Source of the DNA: Nitrospirales bacterium
GTDB taxonomy: Bacteria > Nitrospirota > Nitrospiria > Nitrospirales > UBA8639
DNA: 64,000 nucleotides
NCBI GenBank assembly: GCA_021604145.1
Contig: BQIX01000002.1
Span: 9,250 to 73,249 of the forward strand
Direction: 5' to 3'
The first letter of the stretch is position 1, and each line of letters opens with the position of its first letter. A program made the translations under genes and the position numbers. Of this stretch, positions 9,494-33,586 are shown one piece after another. Under the pieces are notes generated by a model. It worked only from the letters and a program-made list of their open reading frames with translations. It ran no database searches and was not told the DNA's origin.

Positions 9494-10768
9494 ATGGAAT
9501 CTTTTCAGCTCCAACGTTCATATCTACGAATCTTTACCATAGGGCTGTTGCTGTCTCTTGTCCCCGGTCTGTCGGTTCTTGGTGCTGAGCCTCCCTTGAA
9601 ACTGGACACGCTCATCGAGGAAGCCTATCAGCGGAATCCGGAAATTCAGACAGCCAAGCAGCGGTGGGAAGCTACGAAAGCGACAATCCCCCAAGTCCAA
9701 TCTCTGCCTGATCCAGTCGTGGGTTTCGGCTACCGCGGTCCTGACGTCATGAGAGAGGGCAGATTCCAAGTTCAACAACAGTTTCCATTCCCAGGAAAGC
9801 TGGGTCTTAAAGGAGAAGTGGCTTCCAAAGCCGCTGATCAAGTCAGCAAGGCTTATAGGGCCATTCAACTTCGGGTCATCGCCCAGTTAAAGGTCGCTTA
9901 CTTCAACCTTCATTTCATTCATGAATCGATTGAAGTGGTGAACAAAAATCTCATGATTCTCAAAGAGTTGGAGAAAACTGCGGAAGTGCGATACCAGGTG
10001 GGCAAAGGGATTCAGCAAGACGTTTTCCGGGCGCAAGTTGAGCTTTCCAGAGAAATGGAGCGATTGACCAGCTTGGAGCAGGAACAACACACGATCACCG
10101 CGGAACTCAATCGAATCCTCAATCGCCCGCCAACCATGCCACTTGGCAAACCCGAGGAACCAACACTGACGTCGCTACCGTATAGCCTTGAAGAACTCAT
10201 CAAGCTGGTCAAACAACAGTCTCCGATCCTGCAAGTCCAGGCGCATGGCATTGAAAAAAGTCAATCGTCTTTAGCATTAGCCCAGCGGGAATATTATCCA
10301 GATTTTGTCGTCACTCTCGGAACCATGCAGTCATTCCGATCAAATGAGCTGACCGATGCATTTGGCATGTTTGGCATAAAGGTACCGCTCTACTATTCCA
10401 CCAAACAACGCTATGGAGAAAAAGAAGCGCTCGCAAACTTGGAAGGGGCACGGAAGAACTATGATGCGGTGCTGCAAGACGCCTTGTTTCGGATGAAGGA
10501 CAATGTTGTCCGAGTCCAACGAGCTGCACGTTTGGTGAAACTGATTGGAGGAGCCATCATTCCTCAAGCGTCGCTGGCGCTTGAATCATCGATGGCTGGG
10601 TATGGGGTCGGAAAGGTGGACTTTCTGACCATGCTCGACAATGTGCTCAACCTGCAGCAAGACGAATTGGATCTCCATCGCCAAACAACCGACCACGAAA
10701 TTGCCATCGCCAAGATTGAAGAGGTCATTGGGCAACCTCTGCACGGACAAGCTGTCACGAGGAATTAA
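9494..10768 (+). CDS. cusC: outer-membrane efflux protein (TolC/CusC/CzcC family)
   Basis: 424 aa with a signal peptide and two OEP-type coiled repeats. First gene of a C-B-A efflux operon. Confidence 0.9.
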   Translation: MESFQLQRSYLRIFTIGLLLSLVPGLSVLGAEPPLKLDTLIEEAYQRNPEIQTAKQRWEATKATIPQVQSLPDPVVGFGYRGPDVMREGRFQVQQQFPFPGKLGLKGEVASKAADQVSKAYRAIQLRVIAQLKVAYFNLHFIHESIEVVNKNLMILKELEKTAEVRYQVGKGIQQDVFRAQVELSREMERLTSLEQEQHTITAELNRILNRPPTMPLGKPEEPTLTSLPYSLEELIKLVKQQSPILQVQAHGIEKSQSSLALAQREYYPDFVVTLGTMQSFRSNELTDAFGMFGIKVPLYYSTKQRYGEKEALANLEGARKNYDAVLQDALFRMKDNVVRVQRAARLVKLIGGAIIPQASLALESSMAGYGVGKVDFLTMLDNVLNLQQDELDLHRQTTDHEIAIAKIEEVIGQPLHGQAVTRN

Positions 10769-10772
10769 ACTC

Positions 10773-12062
10773 ATGAAACCATCACACTCATTCATTCGTA
10801 ACCAAAAAGGCCTGACACTATGGCTATGGGTTGGATTCCTTGCGGCGATGGTGGCCGTGGGAGTTGGGGCATACTGGTGGTTCATGGTGAGGGCGCCAGA
10901 ACGCATGCACCCAACCCAAACCACAGAAGAAAAAATGGTCTCGCCCCAACCAGTCACGCAGACTCCAAAGATCTCGCCTCTACCCGCACAGAACAAGGGT
11001 GTGATGGTCAGTCAACACAAGCAACAAATGATTGGGGTTAAGACTGAACCCGCCACGATTCGAGACCTGACTCATACGATCCGCACCGTGGGTCAGGTCG
11101 AAGTTGACGAACGACGGCTGACCCACATGCACACGAAACTCGAAGGGTGGGTGCAGGAACTCTACGTGAAGTTTACGGGTGAACAGGTCCAGAAAAATCA
11201 AAAACTGTTTGAAATGTATAGTCCCGAACTTGTCTCCACTCAGGAAGAATATTTGTTGGCCTTAAAAGCGGTGAAATCCCTTGGGGACAGCGAATTTCCG
11301 GAGATTGCGCAAAACGCTAAGTCCCTCCTGGAAGTCACCCGCCAACGTTTTTCTCTCTGGGATATTACGCCCGACCATATTCGAGATTTGGAGAAAACCG
11401 GGAAAGTCCTTCGGACCTTGCCCTTGCATGCCCCAAGCTCAGGCTATGTCCTGCATATGGCGGTTCGTGAAGGCATGCACGTGATGCCGGCCATGGAACT
11501 CTACGCCTTGGCTGATTTATCAACAGTGTGGGTTCTGGCAGATGTGTATGAATATGAAATCCCCCTCGTAGAACTGGGGCAGCAAGCCACGATGACCCTG
11601 TCGTATTTCCCAGGCCAAACATTCACCGGCAAAGTGACCTACGTGTATCCCATACTTGAAACCAAAACGCGGACGGTCAAAGTCAGGTTCGAACTGCCGA
11701 ATCCAAAATGGGCACTCAAACCAGGCATGTTCGCCAATATCGACATCCAGATTCCACGTGGAAAGCGACTCGTCGTTCCCACGACAGCCGTCCTTGATTC
11801 AGGTACGGAACAACTCGTGTTTATTGATCAAGGCCAAGGCATGTTCGAGCCGCGCAAAGTCACGGTGGGTGTGCGGACGCGGGATGCGTATGAAATTCTG
11901 GAGGGAATTCAGGCTGGAGAGTTGGTGGTCACCAGGGGCAACTTTCTCGTGGATTCGGAAAGTAACCTGAAAGCGGCCACCGAGATGATGATGCCAGGCA
12001 TGGACATGGGAAAGAAAAAGAACGCCGAGCAATCAATGCCCATAGGGGACATGCAACCGTGA
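10773..12062 (+). CDS. cusB: RND periplasmic adaptor (CusB/CzcB family) with Met-rich C-terminus
   Basis: HlyD/RND adaptor architecture. ATG 10773 sits after GAGGA, and the 10641 start would overlap cusC. C-terminal tail is MMMPGMDMGKKKNAEQSMPIGDM. Confidence 0.9.
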   Translation: MKPSHSFIRNQKGLTLWLWVGFLAAMVAVGVGAYWWFMVRAPERMHPTQTTEEKMVSPQPVTQTPKISPLPAQNKGVMVSQHKQQMIGVKTEPATIRDLTHTIRTVGQVEVDERRLTHMHTKLEGWVQELYVKFTGEQVQKNQKLFEMYSPELVSTQEEYLLALKAVKSLGDSEFPEIAQNAKSLLEVTRQRFSLWDITPDHIRDLEKTGKVLRTLPLHAPSSGYVLHMAVREGMHVMPAMELYALADLSTVWVLADVYEYEIPLVELGQQATMTLSYFPGQTFTGKVTYVYPILETKTRTVKVRFELPNPKWALKPGMFANIDIQIPRGKRLVVPTTAVLDSGTEQLVFIDQGQGMFEPRKVTVGVRTRDAYEILEGIQAGELVVTRGNFLVDSESNLKAATEMMMPGMDMGKKKNAEQSMPIGDMQP

Positions 12063-12078
12063 AGAAGGAACTCGTTTC

Positions 12079-15000
12079 GTGATTGAGAAAATCATCGAAT
12101 ACAGCGCGAGAAACAAATTTGTCGTCCTGCTGCTCGTCGCCTTCCTCGTGGCCTGGGGCGTCTGGGTCATGCGGGTGATGCCATTGGATGCCATTCCGGA
12201 CTTGTCCGATGTGCAGGTAATTATTTTTACGGAATGGCCGGGCCAGGCGCCTCAACTTGTTGAGGATCAGGTGACCTATCCCATTGTCACTACCATGTTG
12301 GGCGCCCCCAAAGTCAAAACTGTCCGGGGCTATTCCTTTTTTGGGCTCTCCTTTATCTATGTCATTTTTGAAGATGGCACCGACATGTACTGGGCCCGCA
12401 GTCGAATTCTGGAATACATGAATGAGGCCATGAAAGCCCTGCCTGACGGGATCACCCCCACGCTTGGCCCCGATGCCACCGGCGTAGGATGGGGATTTGA
12501 ATATGCCGTGGTGGACTCCACAGGGCAGTTAGATCTGGCTGAGTTACGCACGCTGCAAGACTGGTATATCCGGTACTGGCTCAAGGCGGTCCCTGGCGTG
12601 TCGGATGTGGCAAGTATTGGAGGGTATGTCCAGCAGTACCAGGTGAATGTGGAGCCCAATGCCATCCAAGCGTACAACCTCTCGTTGGACACAGTCATGC
12701 ATGCGATTCGGATGAGTAACAACGACGTGGGCGGCCGGGTGGTGGAATTTACTGGACGAGAATACATGGTCTGGGGCCGAGGGTACATTGAATCCGTGAC
12801 GGACCTTGAGCAAGTGGCGGTCGGGACGGATGCACAAGGCACCCCCATACTCCTTAAGGACATTGCCCGGGTAGAATTAGGGCCTGATCTTCGGCGAGGG
12901 TTCACAGAACTGAATGGGACCGGTGAAGTCGTGGGTGGCATCGTCGTCGTGCGGTTTGGGGAAAGCACCTTGGATGTTATTGAACGCGTCAAAGCCAAAA
13001 TCACAGAAATTGCCCCCGCGCTCCCTGAAGGCGTTGAAATCATTCCGACCTATGATCGCTCTGATCTGATCCTCCGTTCTGTGGCGACGCTCAAAGAAAA
13101 GCTGATTGAAGAAAGTGTGATCGTCAGTCTGATTACCATCCTCTTCCTCTTTCATGTTCGCAGTGCCTTAGTGGCCATCCTGACCCTCCCGTTAGCGATC
13201 CTCATGGCCATCACGGCCATGTACTACTTGGGGGTCAGCTCCAATATCATGTCCCTGGGCGGAATCGCCATTGCCATTGGCGCCATGGTAGATGGGGCGA
13301 TTGTGATGGTGGAAAACGCGCATAAGAAACTCGAACGAGGTGGAAAAGATACCGATCGAGTCACCCTCATCATTGAGGCGGCCAAAGAAGTGGGCAAACC
13401 TCTCTTCTTTTCGCTGCTGATCATCACCGTGTCCTTCTTACCGGTGTTTACGTTAGAGGCTCAGGAAGGCCGGCTCTTTCGGCCCTTAGCGTATACGAAG
13501 ACCTTTTCTATGGGCTTTGCAGCGCTCTTGTCCATCACGGTGGTGCCGCTTCTCATGGTGCTATTGGTGCGAGGCAAGATTGCCAGCGAAGCCCGGAATC
13601 CGCTCGCTCGTGTGCTCATTGCCGGGTATCGGCCCATCGCTGGATTTGTTTTTCGTTTCCGAAAGACGGTCGTCCTCCTTGCTGTCATCGGACTTGTGGC
13701 CACGTTGCCCACCTTCATGACATTAGGCTCCGAGTTTATGCCGCCATTGTATGAGGGGACCTTGATGTATATGCCGGTGACCGTACCCGGTGCCTCCATC
13801 ACGGAAATGCAACGCGCACTCAAAGTGACCGACCGGATAATCAAGCAATTCCCCGAGGTGGAAAGTGTGTTTGGCAAAGCCGGTCGAGCCAGAACAGCCA
13901 CGGATCCTGCACCACTGACCATGATCGAAACTATTATTAATCTCAAGCCCGAGGAACAATGGCGACCTGGTATGACCGTCGAGAAGTTGGAGAATGAATT
14001 AGATCAGGCGCTCCAAATTCCAGGATTAGCGAATGCGTGGACCATGCCAATCAAGGGACGCCTGGATATGCTCACGACCGGCATTCGTACGCCTCTCGGC
14101 ATCAAAATATACGGACGTGATTTGGATGAAATCCAACGGATTGGTGGCGAGTTGGAAAATGCGCTCCGCGATGTCCCGGGCACCCGCAATATTTTCGCCG
14201 AGCGAACAGGGGACGGGTATTACGTCTATTTCAGGATGAAGCGCGAAGAAATCGCCCGCTATGGCTTGCTGGTCAGTGATGTGGAGCGGGTCATTGAATC
14301 GGCCATCGGGGGAACAAACATCTCCACGACCATCGAAGGGCGGGAACGATTCCCAGTGAATCTCCGCTATTCGCGTGCCTTTCGAAATTCGCTGGAAGAT
14401 CTCCAACGCGTGTTGGTCTCAACCTCCACCGGTCAACAGATCCCGATTACTCAACTGGCTGATGTCAGTCTGGTAAAGGGACCCACAGTGGTGAAAAGTG
14501 AAGGTTCGCTGTTAGTGGGGTATGTCTATGTGGATGTGGCTGGCCGCGATCTGGGCAGTTATGTCCAGGAAGCGCAGCAGATTGTTGCCCAGCAGGTGCC
14601 GATGCCTCAAGGGTATCACTTAAATTGGAGTGGGCAATATGAATATATGCAGCGGGCCAAAGCCCGCCTCATGTACGTGGTGCCCCTGACTCTTCTCATT
14701 GTCTTTTTGCTGCTCTATCTGAATTTTCAGTCCATCGCCAGGAGCCTCATTGTCCTACTTTCGGTGCCCTTTGCTGCGATCGGAGCCATTTGGGCATTGT
14801 ACCTTCTCGACTACGACTTGAGTGTCGCCGTCTGGGTGGGAATTATTGCCTTAGTCGGGGTGTCCGCGGAGATTGGGATTATCATGATTGCCTATTTGGA
14901 TCAGACGTATGCCAATTGGACCGCTGAAGGGCGGCTCACCAACATGAAAGATCTGATCGACGCCGTCATCGAAGGCAGCGTCAAACGGGTGCGTCCGATC

Positions 15001-15258
15001 ACGATGACGGTCGGCTCGACGATTGCCGGACTGCTTCCGATCATGTGGACGCATGGCAGTGGGGCCGATGTCACGAAGCGGATTGCCGCTCCGATGATTG
15101 GAGGCATGGTGACGACCTTGATGCTCACCCTTCTCGTTCTGCCAGCCATTTACATCATCTGGAGAGGATGGGAGTTAAGGAAACAGGCGTCCATGCCAGG
15201 GTTGGAAGAATACCCAGCAACTGAACACCATAACTCGGAAGGAAGGAGTGGCGATTAA
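12079..15258 (+). CDS. cusA: heavy-metal RND pump, CusA-type (Cu/Ag)
   Basis: Collinear with E. coli CusA as recalled (DAIPDLSDVQVII, YVIFEDGTDMYWARSR). The three Met of the CusA methionine cluster appear conserved in LMYMP, PLTMIET and RLDMLTTG. Confidence 0.95.
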   Translation: MIEKIIEYSARNKFVVLLLVAFLVAWGVWVMRVMPLDAIPDLSDVQVIIFTEWPGQAPQLVEDQVTYPIVTTMLGAPKVKTVRGYSFFGLSFIYVIFEDGTDMYWARSRILEYMNEAMKALPDGITPTLGPDATGVGWGFEYAVVDSTGQLDLAELRTLQDWYIRYWLKAVPGVSDVASIGGYVQQYQVNVEPNAIQAYNLSLDTVMHAIRMSNNDVGGRVVEFTGREYMVWGRGYIESVTDLEQVAVGTDAQGTPILLKDIARVELGPDLRRGFTELNGTGEVVGGIVVVRFGESTLDVIERVKAKITEIAPALPEGVEIIPTYDRSDLILRSVATLKEKLIEESVIVSLITILFLFHVRSALVAILTLPLAILMAITAMYYLGVSSNIMSLGGIAIAIGAMVDGAIVMVENAHKKLERGGKDTDRVTLIIEAAKEVGKPLFFSLLIITVSFLPVFTLEAQEGRLFRPLAYTKTFSMGFAALLSITVVPLLMVLLVRGKIASEARNPLARVLIAGYRPIAGFVFRFRKTVVLLAVIGLVATLPTFMTLGSEFMPPLYEGTLMYMPVTVPGASITEMQRALKVTDRIIKQFPEVESVFGKAGRARTATDPAPLTMIETIINLKPEEQWRPGMTVEKLENELDQALQIPGLANAWTMPIKGRLDMLTTGIRTPLGIKIYGRDLDEIQRIGGELENALRDVPGTRNIFAERTGDGYYVYFRMKREEIARYGLLVSDVERVIESAIGGTNISTTIEGRERFPVNLRYSRAFRNSLEDLQRVLVSTSTGQQIPITQLADVSLVKGPTVVKSEGSLLVGYVYVDVAGRDLGSYVQEAQQIVAQQVPMPQGYHLNWSGQYEYMQRAKARLMYVVPLTLLIVFLLLYLNFQSIARSLIVLLSVPFAAIGAIWALYLLDYDLSVAVWVGIIALVGVSAEIGIIMIAYLDQTYANWTAEGRLTNMKDLIDAVIEGSVKRVRPITMTVGSTIAGLLPIMWTHGSGADVTKRIAAPMIGGMVTTLMLTLLVLPAIYIIWRGWELRKQASMPGLEEYPATEHHNSEGRSGD

Positions 15259-17231: not shown

Positions 17232-19106
17232 ATGGGCAGTCAAAACACCAGAATAACCCGTCGAGCGTTGTTGCAAGGCATTGGAACGCTGGGGCTGATG
17301 GCGGCCATGGCACGCCTAGTTCCATCCTATGTCTGGGCAAGTGCCACGACGACAGGGGCGACATCCATATCACCGTTAGACGGAAAGGCCATTGAATTAC
17401 TCATCGACGAGACTCCGTTTCGAATTGGGGAGCAAACCGGGATGGCGAAAACCATCAATGGCACGGTACCGGGTCCCTTGATTCGCCTGCAGGAAGGCGA
17501 AGACATTACCCTCAACGTCATCAACCGTTTGAAGGAAGATACCTCAATTCATTGGCACGGATTGATTCTTCCGCCAGATATGGACGGCGTGCCCGGTGTC
17601 AGTTTCGGTGGCATCAAGCCGGCCTCAACCTTTACCTATCGCTTCCCGGTTCGGCAAAGCGGCACGTACTGGTACCACAGCCACTCGGGCTCACAGGAGC
17701 AATCGGGTGTCTACGGGCCGATCATCATCGACCCGATTGAGCCGGAGCCGTTTCACTATGATCGTGATTATGTCGTGGTCCTCTCGGATTGGACCTTCGA
17801 GTCGCCGGAAGCGCTGTTCAACAATCTCAAAAAACTATCCGGCTACTATAACTTCCAGAGACGCACGGCACCTGAGTTTTTCTCCGACGTAGGAAGATGG
17901 GGCTGGGGCACTGCACTTGACAGCTACTTGAGCTGGGACCGGATGCGGATGGACCCAACGGATTTCGCGGATGTCACTAGCCACGCGTATATCTATTTGA
18001 TGAACGGCTTGTCGCCCGCTGGTAACTGGACGGGGCTCTTTCGTCCAGGCGACCGGGTCCGCCTGCGCGTCATCAACGCGGCGGCTATGACCTTCTTCGA
18101 TGTCCGCATACCGGGTCTCAAAATGACAGTGGTACAGGCGGATGGGCAAAACGTGCAGCCCGTCATGGTGGACGAGTTTCGCTTCGGACCGGCGGAAACG
18201 TACGATGTGATCGTCGAACCCGCCGAGGATCGTGCCTACACCATATTCGCTGAGACGATGGATCGCGGTGGCTACGCGCGCGGCACACTCGCTCCGCGTG
18301 TAGGCATGCGCGCCCCGCTTCCTGAACGTCGCCCAAGGCCGCTCCGCACCATGGCAGATATGGGCATGATGATGGAAGGCATGGATATGAAGGGGATGGA
18401 TATGGGCGACAGCACGAACAATCAGGATGGTGCGAGCCACTCGCACGACCCGGGCATGCAGATGCCAGGGAAAGAAGAAACCCAACATGTACCGGACATG
18501 GACATGATGTCAGATATGCCAGTGGATGGTCGTTCCCACTCGAAGATTCCTGGCAGCACGCCCGTCCAGCATGCACCGGGGCATCATGGTCCCGGCAATC
18601 AAGCAGTCGCCGAGTATTCCCGAAGTCGTCTGGATGAACCCGGCGTTGGGTTAGCAAATTCCGACACGCGGGTCCTGGTCTATACCGACTTGAAAAGCCT
18701 TACGCCCTATCCCGACCAACGGGAGCCGGAGCGTGAGATCGAACTTCACCTCACGGGCCACATGGAGCGGTATATGTGGTCGTTTGACGGCAAGAAGTTT
18801 TCGGAAGCGAAAGAGCCCATTGGCTTTCGTTATGGCGAGCGTCTGCGCTTGACCTTCGTGAACGACACGATGATGGAGCATCCCCTGCATCTGCACGGGA
18901 TGTGGATGCACCTTGAGAACGGCACGGGTGCCTACCTGCCGCGTAAGCACACGGTCATCGTCAAGCCTGCCGAGCGGCTATCCGTCGCGATCACCGCTGA
19001 CGCACCGGGACGTTGGGCGTTTCACTGCCATCTGCTCCTTCATATGGAAGCAGGGATGTTCCGGATCGTCGAGGTAACCAGCAAAGAGCCGGAGGTGCGT
19101 TCATGA
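17232..19106 (+). CDS. pcoA: periplasmic multicopper oxidase (CopA/PcoA type) with Met/His-rich insert
   Basis: Tat signal ITRRALLQG. Copper-site motifs HWHG, WYHSH, HPLHLHG, HCHLLLHMEAGM. Insert MADMGMMMEGMDMKGMDMG...DMDMMSDMP. Confidence 0.9.
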   Translation: MGSQNTRITRRALLQGIGTLGLMAAMARLVPSYVWASATTTGATSISPLDGKAIELLIDETPFRIGEQTGMAKTINGTVPGPLIRLQEGEDITLNVINRLKEDTSIHWHGLILPPDMDGVPGVSFGGIKPASTFTYRFPVRQSGTYWYHSHSGSQEQSGVYGPIIIDPIEPEPFHYDRDYVVVLSDWTFESPEALFNNLKKLSGYYNFQRRTAPEFFSDVGRWGWGTALDSYLSWDRMRMDPTDFADVTSHAYIYLMNGLSPAGNWTGLFRPGDRVRLRVINAAAMTFFDVRIPGLKMTVVQADGQNVQPVMVDEFRFGPAETYDVIVEPAEDRAYTIFAETMDRGGYARGTLAPRVGMRAPLPERRPRPLRTMADMGMMMEGMDMKGMDMGDSTNNQDGASHSHDPGMQMPGKEETQHVPDMDMMSDMPVDGRSHSKIPGSTPVQHAPGHHGPGNQAVAEYSRSRLDEPGVGLANSDTRVLVYTDLKSLTPYPDQREPEREIELHLTGHMERYMWSFDGKKFSEAKEPIGFRYGERLRLTFVNDTMMEHPLHLHGMWMHLENGTGAYLPRKHTVIVKPAERLSVAITADAPGRWAFHCHLLLHMEAGMFRIVEVTSKEPEVRS

Positions 19107-19978
19107 GCGCGCCTCTTCGAGGTATTCTTTCGCTGACGGTGATGAGTCTCTTGAGCCTGGAACTCTACGCGGCAGGCGTCTCTGCGCAGACCATCCCTCA
19201 AGCATTGCCCCCTGCGGATGCGAACACGCAGACCTCTCCTGTGGTGCATGCAGACGCGCAGTTGGGCACAGTGTCAAACGTCGCCTCCCAGCCTGCCTGG
19301 CCCAGTCCGGTCGACGATCAACGGAACCACAGCTTTTTTCTCGTCGACGTCCTTGAATACCGTCCAAAAATAGGTGGGTCAGGAAGTGGGAACGACTATC
19401 GGTGGGACATCGAAGGTTGGTATGGCGGGGATTACAACCGCCTCTGGTTCAAAAGCGAAGGGCAACAAAACTCCGCATTGAAGGCCGACTACGATGTTGA
19501 CTCTCAACTACTCTACGGACGTTTTTTCCAACAGTATTACGACTTTCAGATCGGTGGTCGCCTTGAAACACAGTCCTTCGAAGGACGAAATGTGACGCGT
19601 GGACTGGCAGTGATTGGCCTACAAGGACTCGTTCCCTATAACTACGAAATCGAGTCCGCTCTTTTTGTGAGTCATCGCGGCCACGTGTCTGCTCGCTTGA
19701 CGACAACGAAAGACCTGTTCTTGAGTCAACGACTCATCCTTCAGCTTCGAGGTGAAACGAATGTCGCGATTCAACGAGTTAAGAAGTTCACAACTGGTTC
19801 TGGGCTCAACAACCTTGAAGGAGGCGCACGCCTGCGCTATGAAATCCGACGCGAGTTCGCTCCCTACATTGGAGTTTCCTTGGATAGAAGTTTTGGAGAG
19901 ACCGCCACCCTCGTGGGGCAAGAGGGCGGAAACCGGAGTCAAATTCGATTCGTGGTGGGCGTGCGAGCATGGTTCTAA
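19103..19978 (+). CDS. pcoB: copper-resistance outer-membrane protein CopB/PcoB
   Basis: ATGA overlap with the oxidase stop, and GGAGG at 19091. Signal peptide, beta-barrel-like C-terminal part ending RAWF. Confidence 0.85.
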   Translation: MSAPLRGILSLTVMSLLSLELYAAGVSAQTIPQALPPADANTQTSPVVHADAQLGTVSNVASQPAWPSPVDDQRNHSFFLVDVLEYRPKIGGSGSGNDYRWDIEGWYGGDYNRLWFKSEGQQNSALKADYDVDSQLLYGRFFQQYYDFQIGGRLETQSFEGRNVTRGLAVIGLQGLVPYNYEIESALFVSHRGHVSARLTTTKDLFLSQRLILQLRGETNVAIQRVKKFTTGSGLNNLEGGARLRYEIRREFAPYIGVSLDRSFGETATLVGQEGGNRSQIRFVVGVRAWF

Positions 19979-20223: not shown

Positions 20224-20823
20224 TTGACAGTGTCCTCAAATCCGGAATCGCACAACTCCAGGAAACCGATAAGCCCTGATGTGGCCGAGTTGCTCATCAA
20301 CAATCGGCGTGCCTTTCTTCGCTTCCTCACCCGTCATATGGGGAGTACGGATATGGCGGAGGAAGTCCTGCAACAATTCTACCTTCGAGCTATCAGCAAA
20401 GCGTCAGATATCAAAAAGCGAGAGAGTGTTCTGCAATGGTTGTATCGGGTACTGAGCAGCACCCTGGCTGATTATTATCGTGCCAAAACGGCCAGGCAGC
20501 AGAGTGAGGCCCAATATGCCTACTTTCAACCCAAGTTTTTGAAAGACGATGTGGATTCTGAGGCAGCATGTATGTGTTTCTATCAGCTCCTCCCCACGCT
20601 CAAACCCGAGTATAGCGAGATGTTGGAGCGGATCGATCTTCGTGGCGAATCACGCGCAAAGGTGGCAGAGGACTTAGACATAACGCTCAACCTAGTCCGA
20701 GTGCGCCTGCATCGAGCGCGACAGGCTCTCAAGCACGCACTCCTCGTGTCCTGCAAGGGCTGTTGTCCTGAACACAACTTTATGAACTGTGATTGTGAAC
20801 ACTGGGAGAGAATGCCACATTGA
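20224..20823 (+). CDS. ECF-type sigma factor with Cys-rich C-terminus (CorE-like), copy A
   Basis: Sigma-2 region (EEVLQQFYLRAI ... WLYRVLSSTLADYYR), linker CMC, sigma-4 HTH (LRGESRAKVAEDLDITLNLVRVRLHRARQAL), then C-x2-CC-x7-CxC. The start is set at TTG 20224 (or GTG 20230) after AGGAAAGGA, because the longer ORF from 19969 only adds the TPR-tail remnant. Confidence 0.75.
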   Translation: MTVSSNPESHNSRKPISPDVAELLINNRRAFLRFLTRHMGSTDMAEEVLQQFYLRAISKASDIKKRESVLQWLYRVLSSTLADYYRAKTARQQSEAQYAYFQPKFLKDDVDSEAACMCFYQLLPTLKPEYSEMLERIDLRGESRAKVAEDLDITLNLVRVRLHRARQALKHALLVSCKGCCPEHNFMNCDCEHWERMPH

Positions 20824-20845
20824 ATTTTTACTTGCTTACGAAAAC

Positions 20846-20874
20846 TGTAATGCGACGAGCGAAATACCGTCTTA
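20846..20874 (+). promoter_or_regulatory. candidate ECF-type promoter TGTAAT-N16-CGTCTTA, copy 1
   Basis: The bipartite motif is conserved with 30213-30241 while the spacer has diverged. It lies 23 nt after the sigma A stop and upstream of the lipoprotein genes. Confidence 0.45.
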
Positions 20875-20964
20875 CATGTGATTGAAATTGCCAACAACCG
20901 AAATTGGCTGGTCAAGATCAGAAGGCTGGGACAAAACGGGTAAAGCTAGGGGGAGCGGTTTCGT

Positions 20965-21318
20965 ATGAACGGTCGAATTCTGATGTATGTATGGGTGGCG
21001 GGAATGTTTCTTTCTTCCACCTTAGGGCTAATGGCCTGTGGAGAGTCGGCACCCCCTCCACAAGTCTCTTTGATTGACCAGGCGTTGGTGGATACCTCTC
21101 TTCGAGAACGACTCATTGAACGAGGAGCCGCCGATGAAGAATTTGTCCATCAAATTTTAGAGAAATTCAGTCTGAGTCCTGGTGGGAACCAACAACTCTC
21201 TGAAATCCTGGCAGCGCACTTCGAACACCACCCTGAAACCGCCAAGGCTGTATTTATGAAAATGAAAACCCAAGAGGATTTTCAAAAATGGCTCGTTGAA
21301 GAACTGAAAGGCACATAG
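20965..21318 (+). CDS. hypothetical lipoprotein, 117 aa
   Basis: Lipobox GLMACG. ORF track. No family recognised. Confidence 0.6.
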   Translation: MNGRILMYVWVAGMFLSSTLGLMACGESAPPPQVSLIDQALVDTSLRERLIERGAADEEFVHQILEKFSLSPGGNQQLSEILAAHFEHHPETAKAVFMKMKTQEDFQKWLVEELKGT

Positions 21319-21389
21319 GATTATCTTTGGTGATAGAGACTAGTTATTCCAGCACATCGGTGCAACTGAAACCGCAAGAGAGGGGCATA

Positions 21390-21764
21390 ATGAGAAGGGT
21401 CCCAACATGGTTTCGTATGGTGTTCATCCTATCTATCACCTTCCTTGTAGGGTGTGCTTCGAATCAACCGAAAGAATTGGTGGAACGCAATGATCACGCT
21501 GGATTGAAGGTATGGTATCTGACGGAGTCTGCAACGTTGCGCGCCAAGGGCGAAGTGATGCGTCAAATGGCTGATGAATACGGGAGACAACAGACCAAGC
21601 CAGGCTTACCCTCTGAATTAGCTCGACATTGTGAAAACCTGGTTGAGCGATACACGAAAGCCGCTGAAGACATGGAAACCTTGGCCAACGTTCATGCCAA
21701 GCTTCCCTTAAGCGGCCCAGGAAACACCCAGCCGCCAGAGGGTTTTAAACTGTTTTCTTTTTAA
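21390..21764 (+). CDS. small lipoprotein, paralog A (NDHAGL...WY...MRQMA...HC.NL.ERY.KAAE family)
   Basis: Lipobox LVGCAS. Paralog of 42159-42494. Internal ATG 21390 chosen after GAGAGGGG. Confidence 0.65.
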   Translation: MRRVPTWFRMVFILSITFLVGCASNQPKELVERNDHAGLKVWYLTESATLRAKGEVMRQMADEYGRQQTKPGLPSELARHCENLVERYTKAAEDMETLANVHAKLPLSGPGNTQPPEGFKLFSF

Positions 21765-21779
21765 AAGGAGGGAATAATC

Positions 21780-22625
21780 ATGCGATCTTGGAATAATCGT
21801 AATGTGGGAAAAAGGAGCCGGCGAACGACATTGGTTCTTTTCATGGTTTTAAGTCTCACGCCACTTTCCCCGGTATATAGTCAAAACACAACATGGAGTC
21901 CTCAACGACATCAAGGCAATCGGACTACCGATTCTTCAATGATCATCAGTCAGCAGTTGGTAGAATTGCGTGGCAATATTGCCAGTCTGGAAGCCGCTTT
22001 GGAACAAGATCACCGAGGCTCGGTGTCTTTGGTGAACGCTCAGATGGGAATGGACCCTATGGGGTGTGGAGAAGGAGGCTGTGGTCAACCCAGCTCGGGT
22101 AGGAAAACCGGAAAAATGAGTGGTATGGGGAAAGAGGGAATGGGAACGATGGGAATGGGTTCCCGGAAAATGGGAATGGAGAATATGGGGATGATGGGAA
22201 AGATGAGAACACGGAAAGGCCGAATGTCAGGGTCGGCTCTACCCGGGTTTCCTGGGGCATCTCATCTCTATCATATTGGGGGAACCGATTTTTTCCTCGA
22301 TCACCAAGAGCACATCACACTTTCTCCGCAACAGGAATTGGCCATCAATCAAATTAAAGAACAAGCCCTGCTAACCCAAGCGACCTTCGATCGGCAGGTT
22401 GAGCAAGCCGAACAAGAGCTGTGGGTCTTGACCAGTTCAGATCAACCCGCCATTCAGCGAATCGAGCCCAAAATCCGCCAAATCGAAAAGTTGAAGGGAG
22501 ATCAGCGACTCGGCTTTTTCCGTGCGGTAGGTGAGGCCGCTCAAGTGCTTACCGAGCAACAGCGGCAGATTTTGCTTGGAACGGGATCGCCGCAATCCAA
22601 GGCTCAGGGGTCTGAACAGAAATGA
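21780..22625 (+). CDS. periplasmic Met/Gly-rich protein with CpxP/Spy/ZraP-type LTXXQ C-terminal domain
   Basis: Signal peptide. Stretch MGMDPMGCGEGGCG...MSGMGKEGMGTMGMGSRKMGMENMGMMGKM. Two LTXXQ-like motifs (LSPQQ, LTEQQ), as in heavy-metal resistance/Spy family proteins. Confidence 0.75.
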   Translation: MRSWNNRNVGKRSRRTTLVLFMVLSLTPLSPVYSQNTTWSPQRHQGNRTTDSSMIISQQLVELRGNIASLEAALEQDHRGSVSLVNAQMGMDPMGCGEGGCGQPSSGRKTGKMSGMGKEGMGTMGMGSRKMGMENMGMMGKMRTRKGRMSGSALPGFPGASHLYHIGGTDFFLDHQEHITLSPQQELAINQIKEQALLTQATFDRQVEQAEQELWVLTSSDQPAIQRIEPKIRQIEKLKGDQRLGFFRAVGEAAQVLTEQQRQILLGTGSPQSKAQGSEQK

Positions 22626-22945: not shown

Positions 22946-22966
22946 ACCATGAAAGGAGTAAGGGCC

Positions 22967-23302
22967 ATGCAGACCAAAAGACAAATTGTTTCAGGTGTCC
23001 TTGTATGTTTCACGTTAAGTCTTTCTTCGTTGAGTTTCGCAGAAGACAAGTCGCAGTCCACGACCCCGATGTCGTCGGAGTTGCGGAAAGACATGGCGGA
23101 TATGTATCAGAAGATGGCGGTTTGTTTAAGGACGGATACGTCTCTTTCTCTTGAAGAGTGTCAGCGCAAGGTAGCGAACGATTGTCCCGTCGTTGCCAAG
23201 ACAGGCCAGTGTCCGATTGAAAAGGGTATCGGGCACAGGGGTTCTCGAGGCATGCGTTCAGAGGGTATGGGACTCATGGGAGGTCCTCATAAAATGCGCT
23301 AG
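22967..23302 (+). CDS. secreted small Cys-containing protein, ~111 aa
   Basis: ATG 22967 lies 8 nt after AAGGAG. Signal peptide ending SFAED, four Cys, Met/Gly-rich tail GMRSEGMGLMGG. Confidence 0.55.
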   Translation: MQTKRQIVSGVLVCFTLSLSSLSFAEDKSQSTTPMSSELRKDMADMYQKMAVCLRTDTSLSLEECQRKVANDCPVVAKTGQCPIEKGIGHRGSRGMRSEGMGLMGGPHKMR

Positions 23303-23409: not shown

Positions 23410-23505
23410 ATGTCTTCCGCCAAAACGAAGTCGATTGAGATTCGTTATCGGGCACCAAAAGACTTCGACGCCATGAACCGCAGGATCGAGGTTGCGTCGC
23501 TATGA
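23410..23505 (+). CDS. 31-aa upstream ORF translationally coupled to the reductase gene
   Basis: Own translation: MSSAKTKSIEIRYRAPKDFDAMNRRIEVASL. AAGGAG lies upstream. Its stop overlaps the next start (ATGA at 23502-23505). Confidence 0.35.
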   Translation: MSSAKTKSIEIRYRAPKDFDAMNRRIEVASL

Positions 23506-25577
23506 CAGAGGCCCCTCTCACAAGAACTCACCGCCAACGCTTTCTCACTGTCGCCGTCATAGCTGCGTGGTTTTTAATGCTGGTGGGCCCTGGTTTCGCC
23601 CAAACCTCGCCTGAGGAACATGCCAGTCATCATCCGGACCAAGCCAACAGCTCAAGCGGAGCAGAAGGCGGCGAAAGGCAAGAGGGCGCCTCCGGTAGTG
23701 TGGTCGGCGGTCCTCCTGGAAGAAAGGGTGGTGGCCCGGGCAGCATGATGGGTGGCCCGGGCGGGGGCATGGACAAGATGATGGAAAAAATGGGGGCGCC
23801 TAAACCCAAAGCCTTATACCCCACACTCATGAGCCTTCCTGATTTGCCTGTTGAACAACGCGCCAAGGTGCAACAGCAGGCACATGAACGTATGAAGCAA
23901 GGGACAGCCTTGATGGCAGGAGGACTGAAATCCTTATCGCTGTCGGCCCCAACAAACAATTTTTTAGCTATGCAAGAGGCCACGAGGATGTTGCATGAGG
24001 GGATGTCTCAATTCGAAAGTGGTCTGGCTGCCCATCGAGCATTGGCAGAAGGCACGTCACCGCGCAATGTCGCTCTGCAATGGTTCAAGCAGGAAATGAA
24101 CCTGCTTCCTCCAAGGGAGGGCCAGCAGGCCCATGGGATTTTAGGGCTATCCTGGTTTCATTTCTATGTGATGCTGCTCCTTATCGGGTTTGCGGTGGCC
24201 ATGTTATTTCTCTACTTTTTCAAAATGCGCCGCGCGGCGGCATTGCTGAAACGACTTGCTGAGGATTCCGGTCCTGCGAATCCTCCACCAGCCGCTTCTT
24301 CTAAGAAACCAGCTACCACTGTCCCCGTCGAAGTGACACCATCTGGTGGAGGAGTTCCACCATCAATTTCCCAAGCCAAATCCGCCCGTCCGCCCACGTC
24401 GGAAGAAGTGAAACGTTTGGCAACGGCTTCTGCAGAATGCTGCGATGACTCAACAGACGTATGCGCAACCAAAGAGGACCAATCAACAGATCGACCTGAT
24501 ATCTCGAAGGGACTTCTGCCCGTCGCCAAGAAGAAACTCTGCAGACTTCGGGTCGCCCAAATCTACCAGGAAACCGTGGACGTCAAAACTTTCCGGCTCG
24601 TGGCCTGTCATGGAGGGGGCATTCCCTTCAGTTATCTGCCTGGGCAATTCCTCACGTTAACCATGCCGACCGGCGACAAGCCGATTCGTCGAAGCTATAC
24701 CATGTCATCTTCTCCAACTCAAGGATACTATTGCGAGATCACGGTGAAACGTGAAGAGCAAGGCGCCGGATCGCGCTATTTACACGACGCCGTCGAGGTA
24801 GGCGACACGCTTGAGGTTCAAGCCCCGAGCGGGAAGTTTGTGTTTACTGGGAAGGAAGCAGACAGCATTGTGCTCATCTCTGGCGGCGTCGGCATCACTC
24901 CAATGACGAGTATCACCAGGGCATTGACCGACATGGGTTGGCCCGGCGACATCTACTTCATCGCGGCGTGCCGCGATCAAGAACACCTCATCTTCCAGTC
25001 GGAATTAAAGACGCTTCAAGCGCGTCATCCAAATTTACATGTTTTTATCGCTATGAGTCGTCTGGAACAGGACGCCGACGGTTACCATCGCGGGCGGATT
25101 ACCAAGGAATTACTGGCGCAGTGGGTGCCTGGTATCGCCTCGAAGTGGATTCATCTGTGCGGGGCACCGCCCATGATGGATGCTATAAAGCAGATGTTGG
25201 GCGAGTTGGGCGTACCTGGGGAAAAGATTCACACCGAAAACTTTGGCTCGCAACAGAAACCGAAGGTCAGGGCTGCGAAACGCGAGGAAATTCTAAAAAC
25301 GACCCCGGTTGAGAAGACCGGGACGGTCACCTTTCAGAGATCGAATACATCAACGGAACTCATGCCGGATGAGACGGTCCTGGAGGCCTCCGAACGAGTC
25401 GACGTCACAATCGACTATTCCTGCCGGACTGGTTCGTGCGGAGAATGCAAGGTCAAACTCTTGTCCGGGTCAGTGACCATGGAAGTCGAGGACGGCCTGG
25501 ATCCAGAGGACCAAGCCGCAGGAATGATTCTCGCTTGCCAGGCCAAGTCCACCGACAAGGTGGCGGTCGATGCTTAA
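23502..25577 (+). CDS. membrane-anchored fusion: periplasmic His/Met/Gly-rich domain, TM helix, FNR-type FAD/NAD(P)-binding module, plant-type 2Fe-2S ferredoxin
   Basis: Signal peptide ending PGFAQT. HASHHPD and GSMMGGPGGGMDKMMEKMG. TM LSWFHFYVMLLLIGFAVAMLFLYFF. RRSYTMSS (RxYS FAD motif), LISGGVGITPM (NAD motif), C-terminal CRTGSCGECKVKL ... LACQA. Confidence 0.85.
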   Translation: MTEAPLTRTHRQRFLTVAVIAAWFLMLVGPGFAQTSPEEHASHHPDQANSSSGAEGGERQEGASGSVVGGPPGRKGGGPGSMMGGPGGGMDKMMEKMGAPKPKALYPTLMSLPDLPVEQRAKVQQQAHERMKQGTALMAGGLKSLSLSAPTNNFLAMQEATRMLHEGMSQFESGLAAHRALAEGTSPRNVALQWFKQEMNLLPPREGQQAHGILGLSWFHFYVMLLLIGFAVAMLFLYFFKMRRAAALLKRLAEDSGPANPPPAASSKKPATTVPVEVTPSGGGVPPSISQAKSARPPTSEEVKRLATASAECCDDSTDVCATKEDQSTDRPDISKGLLPVAKKKLCRLRVAQIYQETVDVKTFRLVACHGGGIPFSYLPGQFLTLTMPTGDKPIRRSYTMSSSPTQGYYCEITVKREEQGAGSRYLHDAVEVGDTLEVQAPSGKFVFTGKEADSIVLISGGVGITPMTSITRALTDMGWPGDIYFIAACRDQEHLIFQSELKTLQARHPNLHVFIAMSRLEQDADGYHRGRITKELLAQWVPGIASKWIHLCGAPPMMDAIKQMLGELGVPGEKIHTENFGSQQKPKVRAAKREEILKTTPVEKTGTVTFQRSNTSTELMPDETVLEASERVDVTIDYSCRTGSCGECKVKLLSGSVTMEVEDGLDPEDQAAGMILACQAKSTDKVAVDA

Positions 25578-25592
25578 AGAATTTGAAAACTC

Positions 25593-26357
25593 ATGAAGGA
25601 ACGTGAAGCCCTAACGATTGGCGGTCTGGTGCTCTTTCTGACTCTTTTCTGGCTCGGCTTTCTTGTCCACCGATCGCCACGTTTTGCAGGGAGTTTCTGG
25701 GGCGGTATGCTTGGTGTGAGCGGGGCCACGCTGATGCTCGTTCCACTGGCATACCTCGTCATCAAACGAGTGAAAACGCTCAAACAGGCCGTGACTCGAC
25801 GTGTGTCGATGCGTACCCTGCTTGCGTGGCACATCTATGCTGGTGTGGTAGGACCCATTTTAGTTTTGTTCCATACGGGCCATAAGTTTGAAAGTCCGTT
25901 AGGAATTGCTTTGACCAGCATGACGTTCATTGTCGTGTTGAGTGGATTCACCGGTCGCTATCTCATGGGTCAAATCTCTCAAGAGATTAAAGAAAAACGA
26001 TCCATGCTCAACGGGCTGAACTCCTCGTACCAGGAAACAAGGGAACGACTGCGAACGTGCTGCGCGGATAAAACGGCCCAACTTAAACCCTTTGATGGCT
26101 TTTTCTCCCGATTGGTGGGAGGAGCCTTCTTCAGCGCACAGGAACAGGAGACGGAAACGATGTCCATCGGCCTCCGTGCCATTCGGCTTTCTGATGCGAT
26201 TGCTGACCTTGAATACGCCATACGAACACACGAAACCTTCAAACGAATGTTTACCGTGTGGCTGAGAATTCACATCACTTTGTCCATGGTGCTCTATACG
26301 CTTCTCGCTCTCCACATTTGGGCAGCCATTCACTTTGGATTACGTTGGTTTTCATGA
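25593..26357 (+). CDS. polytopic membrane protein with two H-x13-H pairs (candidate di-haem b, ferric-reductase-domain or DUF4405-like)
   Basis: About 5 TM helices. WHIYAGVVGPILVLFH and IHITLSMVLYTLLALH each have exactly 13 residues between the His, inside hydrophobic segments. A ~100-aa polar loop lies between them. Confidence 0.6.
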   Translation: MKEREALTIGGLVLFLTLFWLGFLVHRSPRFAGSFWGGMLGVSGATLMLVPLAYLVIKRVKTLKQAVTRRVSMRTLLAWHIYAGVVGPILVLFHTGHKFESPLGIALTSMTFIVVLSGFTGRYLMGQISQEIKEKRSMLNGLNSSYQETRERLRTCCADKTAQLKPFDGFFSRLVGGAFFSAQEQETETMSIGLRAIRLSDAIADLEYAIRTHETFKRMFTVWLRIHITLSMVLYTLLALHIWAAIHFGLRWFS

Positions 26358-26377
26358 TGAAGACTGGGTGGTGATCT

Positions 26378-27178
26378 ATGGATAAGCTGCGAATCGTTGC
26401 ATTAACGCTTTTCACGATCTTAGGGGTATTAGGCCTTGTCTATACCAGCGTGGGAACTCCGATGGTTGCCAACACCTGGCAGCGATTAGTCAATCCAGGA
26501 GAGCTCTCCGTGGTCCATGCTTCTTTGGAACAGAATTGCGGATCCTGCCATACCGCTGTCATGGGAGTGGATGCGACGAAGTGCATTCTTTGCCATGCCA
26601 ATGAGGAATCGCTCCTGCAGCGTCAGCCGACGGCCTTTCATGCCGACCTAACGGAGTGTCGATCTTGCCATCTCGAACATCAAGGACACGTTCGAAAGCC
26701 AACGAATATGGATCACCGGGCTCTTGCCAAGATCGGCTTGTTCACCCTCCCGAAGGATGGAGATTCCCTTGGCGAGGCAGAGATGGTGCGCTGGAACCTG
26801 ACAAATTGGCTTGAGCATTCAGAAGTTTTGCTGTCTTCCCCGCTGAACAACCGTCACCTGGCGCCTGAAGAAGCGATTTTAAACTGTACCACCTGTCACA
26901 AAAATGATGACCGACATTTCGAACTTTTTGGCCAGGATTGTGCTGCGTGCCATGCCACACAGGCCTGGACCCTTCCCGAATTCCAGCACCCCCCCGGGAA
27001 CTCTATGGATTGCGTCCACTGTCATCAAGCGCCACCAAGCCATTATATGATGCATTTCACCATGATTTCCCAAAGAGTGGCTGGCCAGCCACGGGCACGT
27101 GTGGATCAGTGTTTTTTATGCCATCAGACTACCTCATGGCCGGATATTAAAAAAGCCGGGATGTATAAACATCATTAA
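26378..27178 (+). CDS. membrane-anchored heptahaem c-type cytochrome
   Basis: N-terminal TM anchor. Seven CxxCH motifs (CGSCH, CILCH, CRSCH, CTTCH, CAACH, CVHCH, CFLCH). Confidence 0.85.
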   Translation: MDKLRIVALTLFTILGVLGLVYTSVGTPMVANTWQRLVNPGELSVVHASLEQNCGSCHTAVMGVDATKCILCHANEESLLQRQPTAFHADLTECRSCHLEHQGHVRKPTNMDHRALAKIGLFTLPKDGDSLGEAEMVRWNLTNWLEHSEVLLSSPLNNRHLAPEEAILNCTTCHKNDDRHFELFGQDCAACHATQAWTLPEFQHPPGNSMDCVHCHQAPPSHYMMHFTMISQRVAGQPRARVDQCFLCHQTTSWPDIKKAGMYKHH

Positions 27179-29597: not shown

Positions 29598-30248
29598 ATG
29601 AACGGAACATCGATTATCGATAGCGGATTGAAAGAAAGAAAGGCCCTTGTGGAAGCGGCCCTGATTCAGAATCGCAAACAATTTCTGTCTTTTCTCCACC
29701 GACGGGAAGGGAGCTTGGAGTTTGTCGAAGACATCTTTCAGCAATTCTGTCTTCGTGCCCTCACCAATAGCGCCACCCTAAGAAATCCAGAAAGGGTCGT
29801 CGCGTGGCTCTATCGGATTCTCCATAGCACGTTGGCCGATTTTTTTCGAAGTGAAAACCGACGCCAACGTGACGAGTCAGCATACACCCAATATCAGACC
29901 GAACAGGGTGGTACCAAGGAGAATGATCCAGAGAAAATTTGCGCCTGTTTTACAAAGGTTTTGCCTACGCTCCAGCCCGGGTATTTTCATATGCTGGAGC
30001 GGATCGATCTGCGTGGAGAATCACGCGAAGAAGTCGCAAGGGATTTGGGCGTTACGAGCAACCTCGTACGAGTGCGGCTGCATCGCGCGCGGCGGGCGCT
30101 TAAGGAGGCACTCCTGGACTCATGCCAGGCTTGCTGTCATGAACAGGGATTCATGGACTGCGATTGTGTTGGAGGAGAAGAGGTGCACGGCATCAGTCGA
30201 AATCACACCAACTGTAATGCGGTGAGATCTTTAACGTCTTATATATGA
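29598..30248 (+). CDS. ECF-type sigma factor with Cys-rich C-terminus (CorE-like), copy B
   Basis: Paralog of 20224-20823. Linker CAC, sigma-4 LRGESREEVARDLGVTSNLVRVRLHRARRAL, then CQACCHEQGFMDCDC. ATG 29598 chosen. Confidence 0.8.
   Translation: MNGTSIIDSGLKERKALVEAALIQNRKQFLSFLHRREGSLEFVEDIFQQFCLRALTNSATLRNPERVVAWLYRILHSTLADFFRSENRRQRDESAYTQYQTEQGGTKENDPEKICACFTKVLPTLQPGYFHMLERIDLRGESREEVARDLGVTSNLVRVRLHRARRALKEALLDSCQACCHEQGFMDCDCVGGEEVHGISRNHTNCNAVRSLTSYI
30213..30241 (+). promoter_or_regulatory. candidate ECF-type promoter TGTAAT-N16-CGTCTTA, copy 2
   Basis: Same bipartite motif and same downstream TGATTGAAATT as copy 1. It lies within the last codons of sigma B, upstream of the 30311-35425 gene string. 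Confidence 0.45.
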
Positions 30249-30310
30249 TTGAAATTTATGAACCGGACCTTCATGAACACAGATTATATCGTGAAACAGG
30301 GAGGGATGTG

Positions 30311-31315
30311 ATGAATACTCCAAATAAACCTTGGACAATTGTTCTAGCGGGAGGGGAAGGAGAGCGCGTAAGGCCATTGGTGCAATCCTGGCTGGGGCGG
30401 CACAGGCCTAAACAGTATTGTACATTTGTGGGAACCCGGTCCATGTTTCAGCATACCCTCCACCGGGCAGCCAAACTCACGACTCCCGAACGCATGGTGA
30501 CCGTGGTGGCTCATGGTCATGGGAGTGAACCATGGACTCAGTTTGACGGAGTACCGGGGATCAAAGTCCTACGTCAACCACAAAACCGGGACACCGCGGC
30601 TGGAATATTTTTTCCTCTCGCGTACATTCGCGCGCGCGATCCGGACGCGACAGTAGTCTTGTACCCATCCGACCACTTTGTATTTCCGGAAGATCGATTT
30701 TTGGAAGTGGTGCAGTGTGCAGTGCAGACGGCGGAGACACAACCCTGGCGCTTGGTCCTGCTTGGGGTTCAACCGGATCGCCTTGAGTTGGAATATGGGT
30801 GGATTCACCCAGGGCCTACCCTCAATCAGTCTACCTCTTGCCACGTGCGGGCGATAAAGGCATTTCTGGAAAAACCGAATTTTCTTCAAGCCAGTCGAGC
30901 GATGAATTCTGGAGCCGTATGGAATACGCTTATTTTGGCTGCCAAGTTACAAAAACTGTGGGAGCTTGGCTGGCAATGTTTTCCAGAGATGATGCCGCTT
31001 TTTGACCGGCTGTGTGGGGCGATCGGAAGCCCAGAAGAAGGCAAGGTTTTAGATGCCATCTATCGGGTCATGCCCGAGAGAAATTTTTCCTCAGGGTTGC
31101 TTCAGCGGGTTCCAGAACACGTAGCCATGATTCAACTGAATGGCGTTCTTTGGAGCGACTGGGGCAAGCCGGAACGAATTGTTGAGACGCTGCTGAAGAT
31201 CGGCAAGCAACCCGCGTTCCCTTTGAGCCTCCTTTCAGGTCTGTCAGCCATAGATACAAGTAGAGTAAAAGTCCGGAACATCTGTGTTTCCGTTAAGAAG
31301 CACGTTTCGGTTTAG
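30311..31315 (+). CDS. sugar-phosphate nucleotidyltransferase (mannose-1-phosphate guanylyltransferase-like)
   Basis: WTIVLAGGEGERVRPL ... PKQYC NTP-transferase N-terminus. ATG 30311 follows GGGAGGGA. Confidence 0.8.
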   Translation: MNTPNKPWTIVLAGGEGERVRPLVQSWLGRHRPKQYCTFVGTRSMFQHTLHRAAKLTTPERMVTVVAHGHGSEPWTQFDGVPGIKVLRQPQNRDTAAGIFFPLAYIRARDPDATVVLYPSDHFVFPEDRFLEVVQCAVQTAETQPWRLVLLGVQPDRLELEYGWIHPGPTLNQSTSCHVRAIKAFLEKPNFLQASRAMNSGAVWNTLILAAKLQKLWELGWQCFPEMMPLFDRLCGAIGSPEEGKVLDAIYRVMPERNFSSGLLQRVPEHVAMIQLNGVLWSDWGKPERIVETLLKIGKQPAFPLSLLSGLSAIDTSRVKVRNICVSVKKHVSV

Positions 31316-31348
31316 AAAGACAACAAACTTAAAGTAAGGAGAGGCATC

Positions 31349-31567
31349 ATGAAAAAGCAGCAGTTATTCAAAAAGAGACCTCCCGATGAGGAAGCACCGG
31401 ATCCAACTCAAGGTAGTCAGGAAACATCAAAAGTTGATGATCTTCAAGTCTGCATCGCCCATCGGGCCTATGAGCTGTATGAGCAAGAGGGCTGTTGCCA
31501 TGGCCATGACTTTGATCACTGGCTTCAAGCTGAGCGAGAAGTTATAAAAGTTGAAACCGAAAAGTAG
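31349..31567 (+). CDS. DUF2934-like small protein
   Basis: IAHRAYELYEQEG..HGHDFDHWLQAEREV matches the DUF2934 pattern as recalled. Confidence 0.65.
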   Translation: MKKQQLFKKRPPDEEAPDPTQGSQETSKVDDLQVCIAHRAYELYEQEGCCHGHDFDHWLQAEREVIKVETEK

Positions 31568-31636
31568 CATGGGCTGCCAGCGAGGTATCGTTGAAAAAGA
31601 TCAGAAGCGGCTCACATGAAGGACAAGAGGGAATGT

Positions 31637-32200: not shown

Positions 32201-32215
32201 AAATATAATTGAGGT

Positions 32216-33544: not shown

Positions 33545-33586
33545 CGAAGTGACATCACGTAATCATCAAGGGGGAGGAATGCTCAG

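Follow-up and report, generated by a model that had tools for sequence, protein, structure and literature searches.

The -35 box of promoters recognised by ECF sigma factors usually ends in AAC, and promoters similar to those described below, of the form TGnAAC-N16/17-CGnn, are read by sigma-X, sigma-W and sigma-M of B. subtilis. [quoted passage not shown] In M. xanthus, CorE2 is reported to respond to Cd/Zn by activating MXAN_5264-5265, the two metal-related genes immediately after corE2, and corE2 is described as not autoregulated (PMC4937300). The targets given for the copper-responsive CorE of the same organism are copB, cuoB, copA and MXAN_3427, with an in silico motif consisting of AAC at -35 and a conserved G at -10, 16-18 nt apart (PMC3107203).

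The DNA analysed here (the window) is a 64,000-nt stretch of a Nitrospirales genome, which carries two CorE-like sigma genes, designated sigA and sigB, each associated with one copy of a bipartite 47-nt element. We consider it highly probable, judging from sequence comparison, that both elements are ECF-type promoters and the cognate targets of the adjoining metal-sensing sigma factors. Compared with CorE2, which is an experimental precedent for this arrangement, the window shows the same CxC linker, Cys-rich C-terminal domain and apparent lack of an anti-sigma factor, and has the layout of sigma gene, putative promoter and putative targets twice; the likeness described here is one of protein features and gene layout. 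It differs from the CorE2 system in its Nitrospirales host, in the predicted sigB targets (nucleotidyltransferase and respiratory genes instead of a CDF pump) and in the overlap of a putative promoter with the end of a sigma ORF. The likeness to CorE lies in the setting of the targets, a copper island that includes a multicopper oxidase and P-type ATPases, whereas CorE is described as partly autoregulating and its -35 motif, compared by text description, ends in AAC where that of the window ends in AAT. With the promoters of B. subtilis sigma-X, -W and -M and of S. meliloti RpoE7, the window elements share a bipartite structure, a GTAA(C) core at -35, a CGT core at -10 and a rigid spacer of 16-17 nt. 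Those sigma factors, however, belong to other ECF groups, are controlled by anti-sigma factors, and usually have their promoters before the sigma operon for autoregulation, while the putative window promoters follow or overlap the sigma gene. No anti-sigma domain was detected in the neighbouring ORFs with Pfam and NCBIfam, whose reach covers recognised anti-sigma types.

The first sigma gene, sigA, occupies positions 20230-20823 of the forward strand, with a probable GTG start at 20230 chosen from the starts of its homologues (the mechanical ORF extends from 19969), and sigB occupies 29598-30248 of the same strand with an ATG at 29598. Pfam assigned sigma2 and sigma4 domains only (Sigma70_r2 and Sigma70_r4_2) to both products, and the best NCBIfam match of both was of SigZ type, that of sigA scoring below the model cutoff. 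The CxC linker reads CMC in sigA and CAC in sigB, and the Cys-rich tail of sigA is SCKGCCPEHNFMNCDC; the Cys columns of linker and tail are invariant or nearly so in an alignment of 24 sequences, in which C104, C106, C165, C177 and C179 were invariant and C168 nearly so. On the strength of linker and C-terminus, the sequences of both proteins place them among the CorE-like (ECF44) sigma factors. The two are paralogues that share 50% of their amino acids, and the DNA encoding sigma4 and the Cys-rich domain is about 70% identical; their sigma4 helices are nearly identical (NLVRVRLHRAR), and VRVRLHRAR is invariant across the family. The closest proteins came from Nitrospirales MAGs, Ca. Nitrospira inopinata has a homologue of 60% identity, and a scan of GTDB representative genomes for sigma homologues gave a best match of 75% identity. 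Upstream of sigA, Pfam matches identified a CusCBA-like RND system (9494-15258), a CopA-type multicopper oxidase (17232-19106, forward strand) and, directly before sigA, CopB (19013-19978, forward strand); sigA is set in a copper/RND resistance island. Further upstream of this island, on the reverse strand (7006-8363), are an N6 DNA methylase-like ORF and a DUF1257 ORF, unrelated to the promoter finding.

The two elements are located at 20844-20890 and 30211-30257. Both sequences recorded in a first-pass annotation of this DNA were recovered at these positions, and a scripted count reproduced its estimate by hand of 36 identities in 47 positions; of the 11 mismatches, 8 fall in the 16-nt spacer. 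Each site has the ECF promoter layout TGTAAT-N16-CGTCTTA. Near sigA, the -35 box cTGTAAT (20845-20851) lies in columns that are invariant among 15 Nitrospirales sites, in agreement with the family logo, and is followed by the spacer (20852-20867), which differs from the sigB copy at 8 of 16 bases while its length is fixed family-wide, and by the -10 box CGTCTTA (20868-20874), as delimited by pattern searches, family logo and Nitrospirales alignment. The corresponding parts near sigB are the -35 box at 30212-30218, within the sigB ORF, and the -10 box at 30235-30241, both delimited by pattern searches and the Nitrospirales alignment, with the spacer at 30219-30234 taken from the pairwise comparison with the sigA copy; all parts are on the forward strand. 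The -35 boxes of both window sites end in AAT, those of other lineages in AAC or AAG.

Within the window, the shared pattern TGTAATGCGnnGAGnnnnnTAnCGTCTTAnATnTGATTGAAATT occurs at 20846-20889 and 30213-30256 and nowhere else, and it was matched in none of 100 dinucleotide-preserving shuffles. A search for TGTAAT-N14-18-CGTC likewise returned these two sites and no more. A position weight matrix (PWM) derived from the homologous sites of other genomes scored them at 22.5 and 22.6, relative to 10.5 for the next best position in the 64 kb and to maxima in shuffled windows averaging 9.9 (highest 14.5), so the absence of further copies, previously judged by eye, holds for the whole window by both PWM and pattern searches. 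Relaxed matches on the reverse strand at 30925, 52559, 982 and 19024 had scores inside the shuffled background and were dismissed as chance. A weak sigma-70-like GTGAGA-16-TATGAT overlapping the sigB site, the sole such match, was within shuffle expectation and was also rejected.

The first-pass annotation placed the element downstream of both sigma genes, which is true of sigA only. There, the stop codon (20821-20823) precedes the element, which starts 22 nt past it and out of frame. In sigB, the last 12 codons (NCNAVRSLTSYI) run through the putative promoter in frame and the stop codon TGA (30246-30248) comes after the -10 box; the same C-terminal tail is found in the syntenic orthologue P0106 of locus L161.

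The motif was surveyed in 160 loci encoding sigma homologues, taken from representative genomes and metagenomes of several phyla. The strict pattern TGTAAY-N16-CGTC was found 124 times in these loci, compared with 2.5 matches in mononucleotide shuffles and 2 in a reversed-sequence control, and 62 strict sites were on the sigma strand between -30 and +250 nt of the sigma C-terminus, where 1.6 were expected from the motif density in the rest of the loci. When the spacer was allowed to vary, the 124 sites with N16 were joined by 11 each with N17 and N12, and by 1-3 with each other length from N13 to N20. At the flanks, which the pattern leaves unforced, a C preceded TGTAA and a T followed CGTC in 55 of 61 sites each. 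The logo of these 61 sites reached about 1.8 bits in TGTAA and CGTC and 1.3 bits at the flanking C and T, with spacer positions at or below 0.75 bits and mostly below 0.5. Information content was thus high only at cTGTAAy and CGTCt, which supports the earlier suggestion that the boxes have been selected while the spacer drifted; position and spacing of the motif across many loci likewise favour, at the level of sequence, its reading of the elements as ECF-type promoters probably used by the adjacent CorE-like sigma factors.

With the PWM, which admits TGTAAG variants as well, a site just after the gene was found for 78 of 166 evaluable sigma genes; about half of these homologous genes had no site directly downstream, and the N. 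moscoviensis locus gave no PWM site. The lineages with a site after the sigma gene comprise Nitrospirota, Alphaproteobacteria, Bdellovibrionota, Planctomycetota and Acidobacteriota, and the site of Ca. Nitrospira inopinata is TGTAATgctctgagcacaattcCGTCTTC (L168:4626). Two other loci with two paralogues (L016 and L024) have one site after each sigma gene, as the window does, and in a third (L085) a strict site was present at one of the two paralogous sigma genes only. The first gene after the site, scored in 70 loci, matched YHS (17), E1-E2 ATPase (14), HMA (13), HMBD (13) or DUF4396 (12); by their sequences, the downstream genes of the family thus usually appear to encode copper or heavy-metal pumps, chaperones and associated membrane proteins.

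Some copies of the motif are placed differently. In the Verrucomicrobiota loci L068, L072, L075 and L076 (about 55 nt), and in L073, L017 and L150, it is found some 55-100 nt upstream of the sigma gene, which implies autoregulation in those lineages; the upstream-site loci outside Verrucomicrobiota are from a Nitrosomonas MAG, a Sphingomonas genome and one metagenome contig. About half of the strict motif matches were outside the immediate post-sigma position, and further copies were seen at a distance of a few kb or in divergent orientation to the sigma gene (L165:797 and L165:4381, and on the minus strand in L014, L015, L018, L019 and L022). Such extra copies near the sigma gene suggest small local regulons.

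The position of the sigma stop codon relative to the motif was determined for 75 distinct sites. It preceded the -35 box in 53 of them and coincided with the TAA of TGTAA itself in 14 (for example L003:4587, L014:4572, L015:4590, L016:4572, L018:4587, L062:4593 and L069:4593). The remaining 8 sites, including that of sigB, had the stop in the spacer, in or just past the -10 box, or further downstream. From the sites with TAA in the box and those with read-through, it follows that the end of the sigma gene overlaps its own putative target promoter in several phyla.

That the elements are real regulatory sites read by some other protein, either another ECF sigma factor or a metal-responsive repressor or activator, is the alternative that survives best, and we regard it as improbable. 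Boxes of the TGTAAC and CGTC type occur at -35 and -10 in other ECF groups, for example TGTAAC for S. meliloti RpoE7 (PMC6180224), so that another ECF sigma factor could read the window sites, and the additional conserved blocks (GAG and TGATTGAAATT, see below) could be contacts of a second protein. Across phyla, the motif is nevertheless found together with CorE-like sigma genes (62 sites observed against 1.6 expected) and is duplicated along with the sigma gene in L016 and L024, the conserved blocks are not palindromic, unlike most operators, and the invariant TGTAA is matched by an invariant sigma4 helix, VRVRLHRAR.

A role at the RNA level, either at the end of the sigma transcript (3'-UTR, terminator) or as structured leader of the downstream mRNA, would be compatible with an intergenic location on the transcribed strand and with a block past the -10 box that would fall in the 5' leader, but is very unlikely given two fixed boxes around a free spacer of set length, with no paired columns. 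No Rfam family matched at the elements at E<=1, a terminator scan found no terminator-like hairpin there, and folding compared with shuffles gave no signal (z-scores from -1.3 to +0.7). Neither compensatory changes in the alignments nor a processed 3' end inside the element came to light.

The two elements could also be a functionless, neutral residue of the duplication that produced sigA and sigB, whose paralogy and degree of identity would fit such an origin. Aligned with each other, the genes show about 70% identity as far as the CDC codons, followed by some 45 nt that are unalignable, with identity at chance level; near-identity returns in the element and is lost again past TGATTGAAATT. 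The element is therefore an island of identity flanked by chance-level similarity and not part of a uniform duplication, the longer conserved repeat that the first-pass annotation had named as a finding that would overturn its interpretation. Neutral drift does not account for the recurrence of the same motif, in the same position and with the same spacing, in distant phyla, and we give this explanation next to no weight. Equally little credence is due to a conserved C-terminal sigma peptide (NCNAVR...), a protein-coding constraint that would agree with the translation of the element as ...NCNA(V/T)R... in sigB, P0106 and P0034, because the element is beyond the stop codon and out of frame at sigA while in frame at sigB, because the ORF in most of the 75 sites ends before the -35 box or with the TAA of the box, and because a conserved peptide would explain neither the -10 box nor its fixed spacing; the constraint is thus on DNA, not on protein.

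If the elements are promoters of the adjoining sigma factors, the inducing metal would bind the Cys-rich C-terminal domain and the CxC linker and render the sigma factor active, which would then guide RNA polymerase to the promoter at the 3' end of the sigma gene itself. Transcription would be expected to start about 6-9 nt past CGTC, near 20878-20882 and 30245-30250, and to run into the co-oriented genes downstream. Start site, sigma dependence, metal signal and transcript extent are what we infer for both loci. Identical boxes and near-identical sigma4 helices mean that each sigma factor may read both promoters, and sigA and sigB may differ mainly in the metal that they sense. As for expression data, the sequence runs containing the source organism are DNA biofilm metagenomes only, and in sparse metatranscriptome contigs of a related Nitrospira locus (L038) there was a coverage gap between the sigma and ATPase genes. 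Runs X3, X4 and X20 behaved like DNA assemblies of relatives of about 90-99% identity, and yielded sequence variants such as 20878 G>A.

The sigA-proximal site would serve a putative operon at 20965-22625, identified from ORFs and their translations, in which the -10 box (ending at 20874) is followed by a ribosome binding site GGGGGAG (20949-20955) and an ATG at 20965 in the same orientation. Its putative products, predicted to be periplasmic lipoproteins and Met-rich proteins encoded beside copA/copB, are two lipoprotein-like ORFs (20965-21318 and 21390-21764) and a periplasmic protein that is rich in Met and matches LTXXQ weakly (21780-22625), all on the forward strand. A small Met-rich ORF recognised from its translation (22949-23302, forward strand) and later genes may belong to the same operon. 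A metal-related function of the sigA targets is plausible from the sequences of these Met-rich, LTXXQ-like periplasmic proteins, and the genes syntenic to 21780-22625 in L162-L164 match PF13801 (Metal_resist). The products of 21780-22625 and 22949-23302, secreted proteins with Met-rich tracts (MGMDPMG..., GMGKEGMGTMGMGSRKMGMENMGMMGKM and a C-terminal MGLMGG), lack a family assignment and are candidates for Cu(I) binding or a chaperone role in the periplasm. Further downstream, the region 23502-27178 contains a gene for a 691-aa protein, in which a long unassigned N-terminal part precedes FAD_binding_6, NAD_binding_1 and 2Fe-2S domains; next come a membrane-like ORF of 254 aa and a multihaem cytochrome c. 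In L162 and L163, too, the reductase gene comes after sigA-type genes, and in L161 the membrane-like ORF and the multihaem cytochrome c stand before the sigB orthologue.

At the sigB-proximal site, the -10 box (ending at 30241) is followed by a ribosome binding site GGAGGG (30300-30305) and a co-oriented ATG at 30311, the start of a second putative target operon (30311-34111, forward strand) annotated with Pfam. It comprises genes for an NTP_transferase (30311-31315), a DUF2934 protein (31349-31567), a Rieske protein (31616-32200), a cytochrome b/c fusion (32216-33544) and a cytochrome c (33587-34111), all on the forward strand, and the gene order from nucleotidyltransferase to cytochrome c is kept in L161 and L166/L167. 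A porin closes the cluster in the window (30311-35425); the L161 and L166 loci as fetched end short of the porin position. Transcripts from this site would cover the NDP-sugar transferase gene and may extend to the Rieske/cytochrome b genes after it. The genes downstream of sigB (sugar nucleotidyltransferase, Rieske/cytochrome b) have no obvious role in metal resistance, and a bc-type respiratory module may be under the control of a metal-sensing sigma factor.

To our knowledge, the two M. xanthus proteins are the only CorE-like sigma factors to have been studied experimentally. The present comparison provides a usable consensus for promoters of this group, cTGTAAy-N16-CGTCt, together with a positional rule (the very end of the sigma gene), which allow regulon prediction in Nitrospira and many uncultured lineages. 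What is modestly new is a family consensus with a rigid N16 spacer and the frequent overlap of promoter and stop codon, the published CorE consensus having been compared by its text description only. Two gene sets, which include those for the uncharacterised Met-rich periplasmic proteins and the Rieske/cytochrome b cluster, are flagged as candidate metal-stress regulons, and the sigma gene with its promoter, a compact module apparently free of an anti-sigma factor, could serve as a metal biosensor part. The finding is a sound, ordinary regulatory annotation, and leaves the understanding of ECF regulation unchanged.

Two conserved blocks, GAG and TGATTGAAATT, exceed the needs of a minimal ECF promoter, and recognition by the adjoining sigma factors leaves both unaccounted for. 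In the alignment of 15 Nitrospirales sites, the invariant columns were those of C-TGTAA and CGTCT and, within the spacer, a C and the GAG. The GAG, 5 nt past TGTAAT (20857-20859 and 30224-30226), was thus present in all 15 Nitrospirales-type sites, and was not conserved in the family-wide logo. The second block, TGATTGAAATT, is found at 20879-20889 (predicted +1 to about +11) and at 30246-30256, where it begins with the TGA that ends sigB, both on the forward strand. It is common to both window sites and present with 1-2 changes in the orthologous loci L001, L161 and L166/167, and it is absent from other Nitrospirales sites and from the family at large, where the logo is weak at these positions. 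The start region opens with ATG, or with GTG at sigA, where the 20878 G>A change in related strains also gives ATG. The start block may be a leaderless mini-ORF, a signal in the initially transcribed sequence, or an operator. A more far-reaching combination, in which the promoter of a CorE-like sigma gene is a built-in 3' module passed on and duplicated with that gene, the Nitrospirales extras (GAG and, at the predicted +1, ATG/GTG-ATTGAAATT) provide a second layer of control, and one copy of the module puts an alternative Rieske/cytochrome b complex under direct control by metal, is doubtful when all parts are taken together.

In the same start region, ATG/GTG-ATT-GAA-ATT opens short ORFs with the N-termini MIEI, MIEF, MIDF or MVEF (20878-20943 and 30245-30310 in the window), which were also seen at the approximate positions L001:2472, L161:4648 and L166:4650. 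At sigB, the ATG (30245) shares its reading frame with the nucleotidyltransferase ORF.
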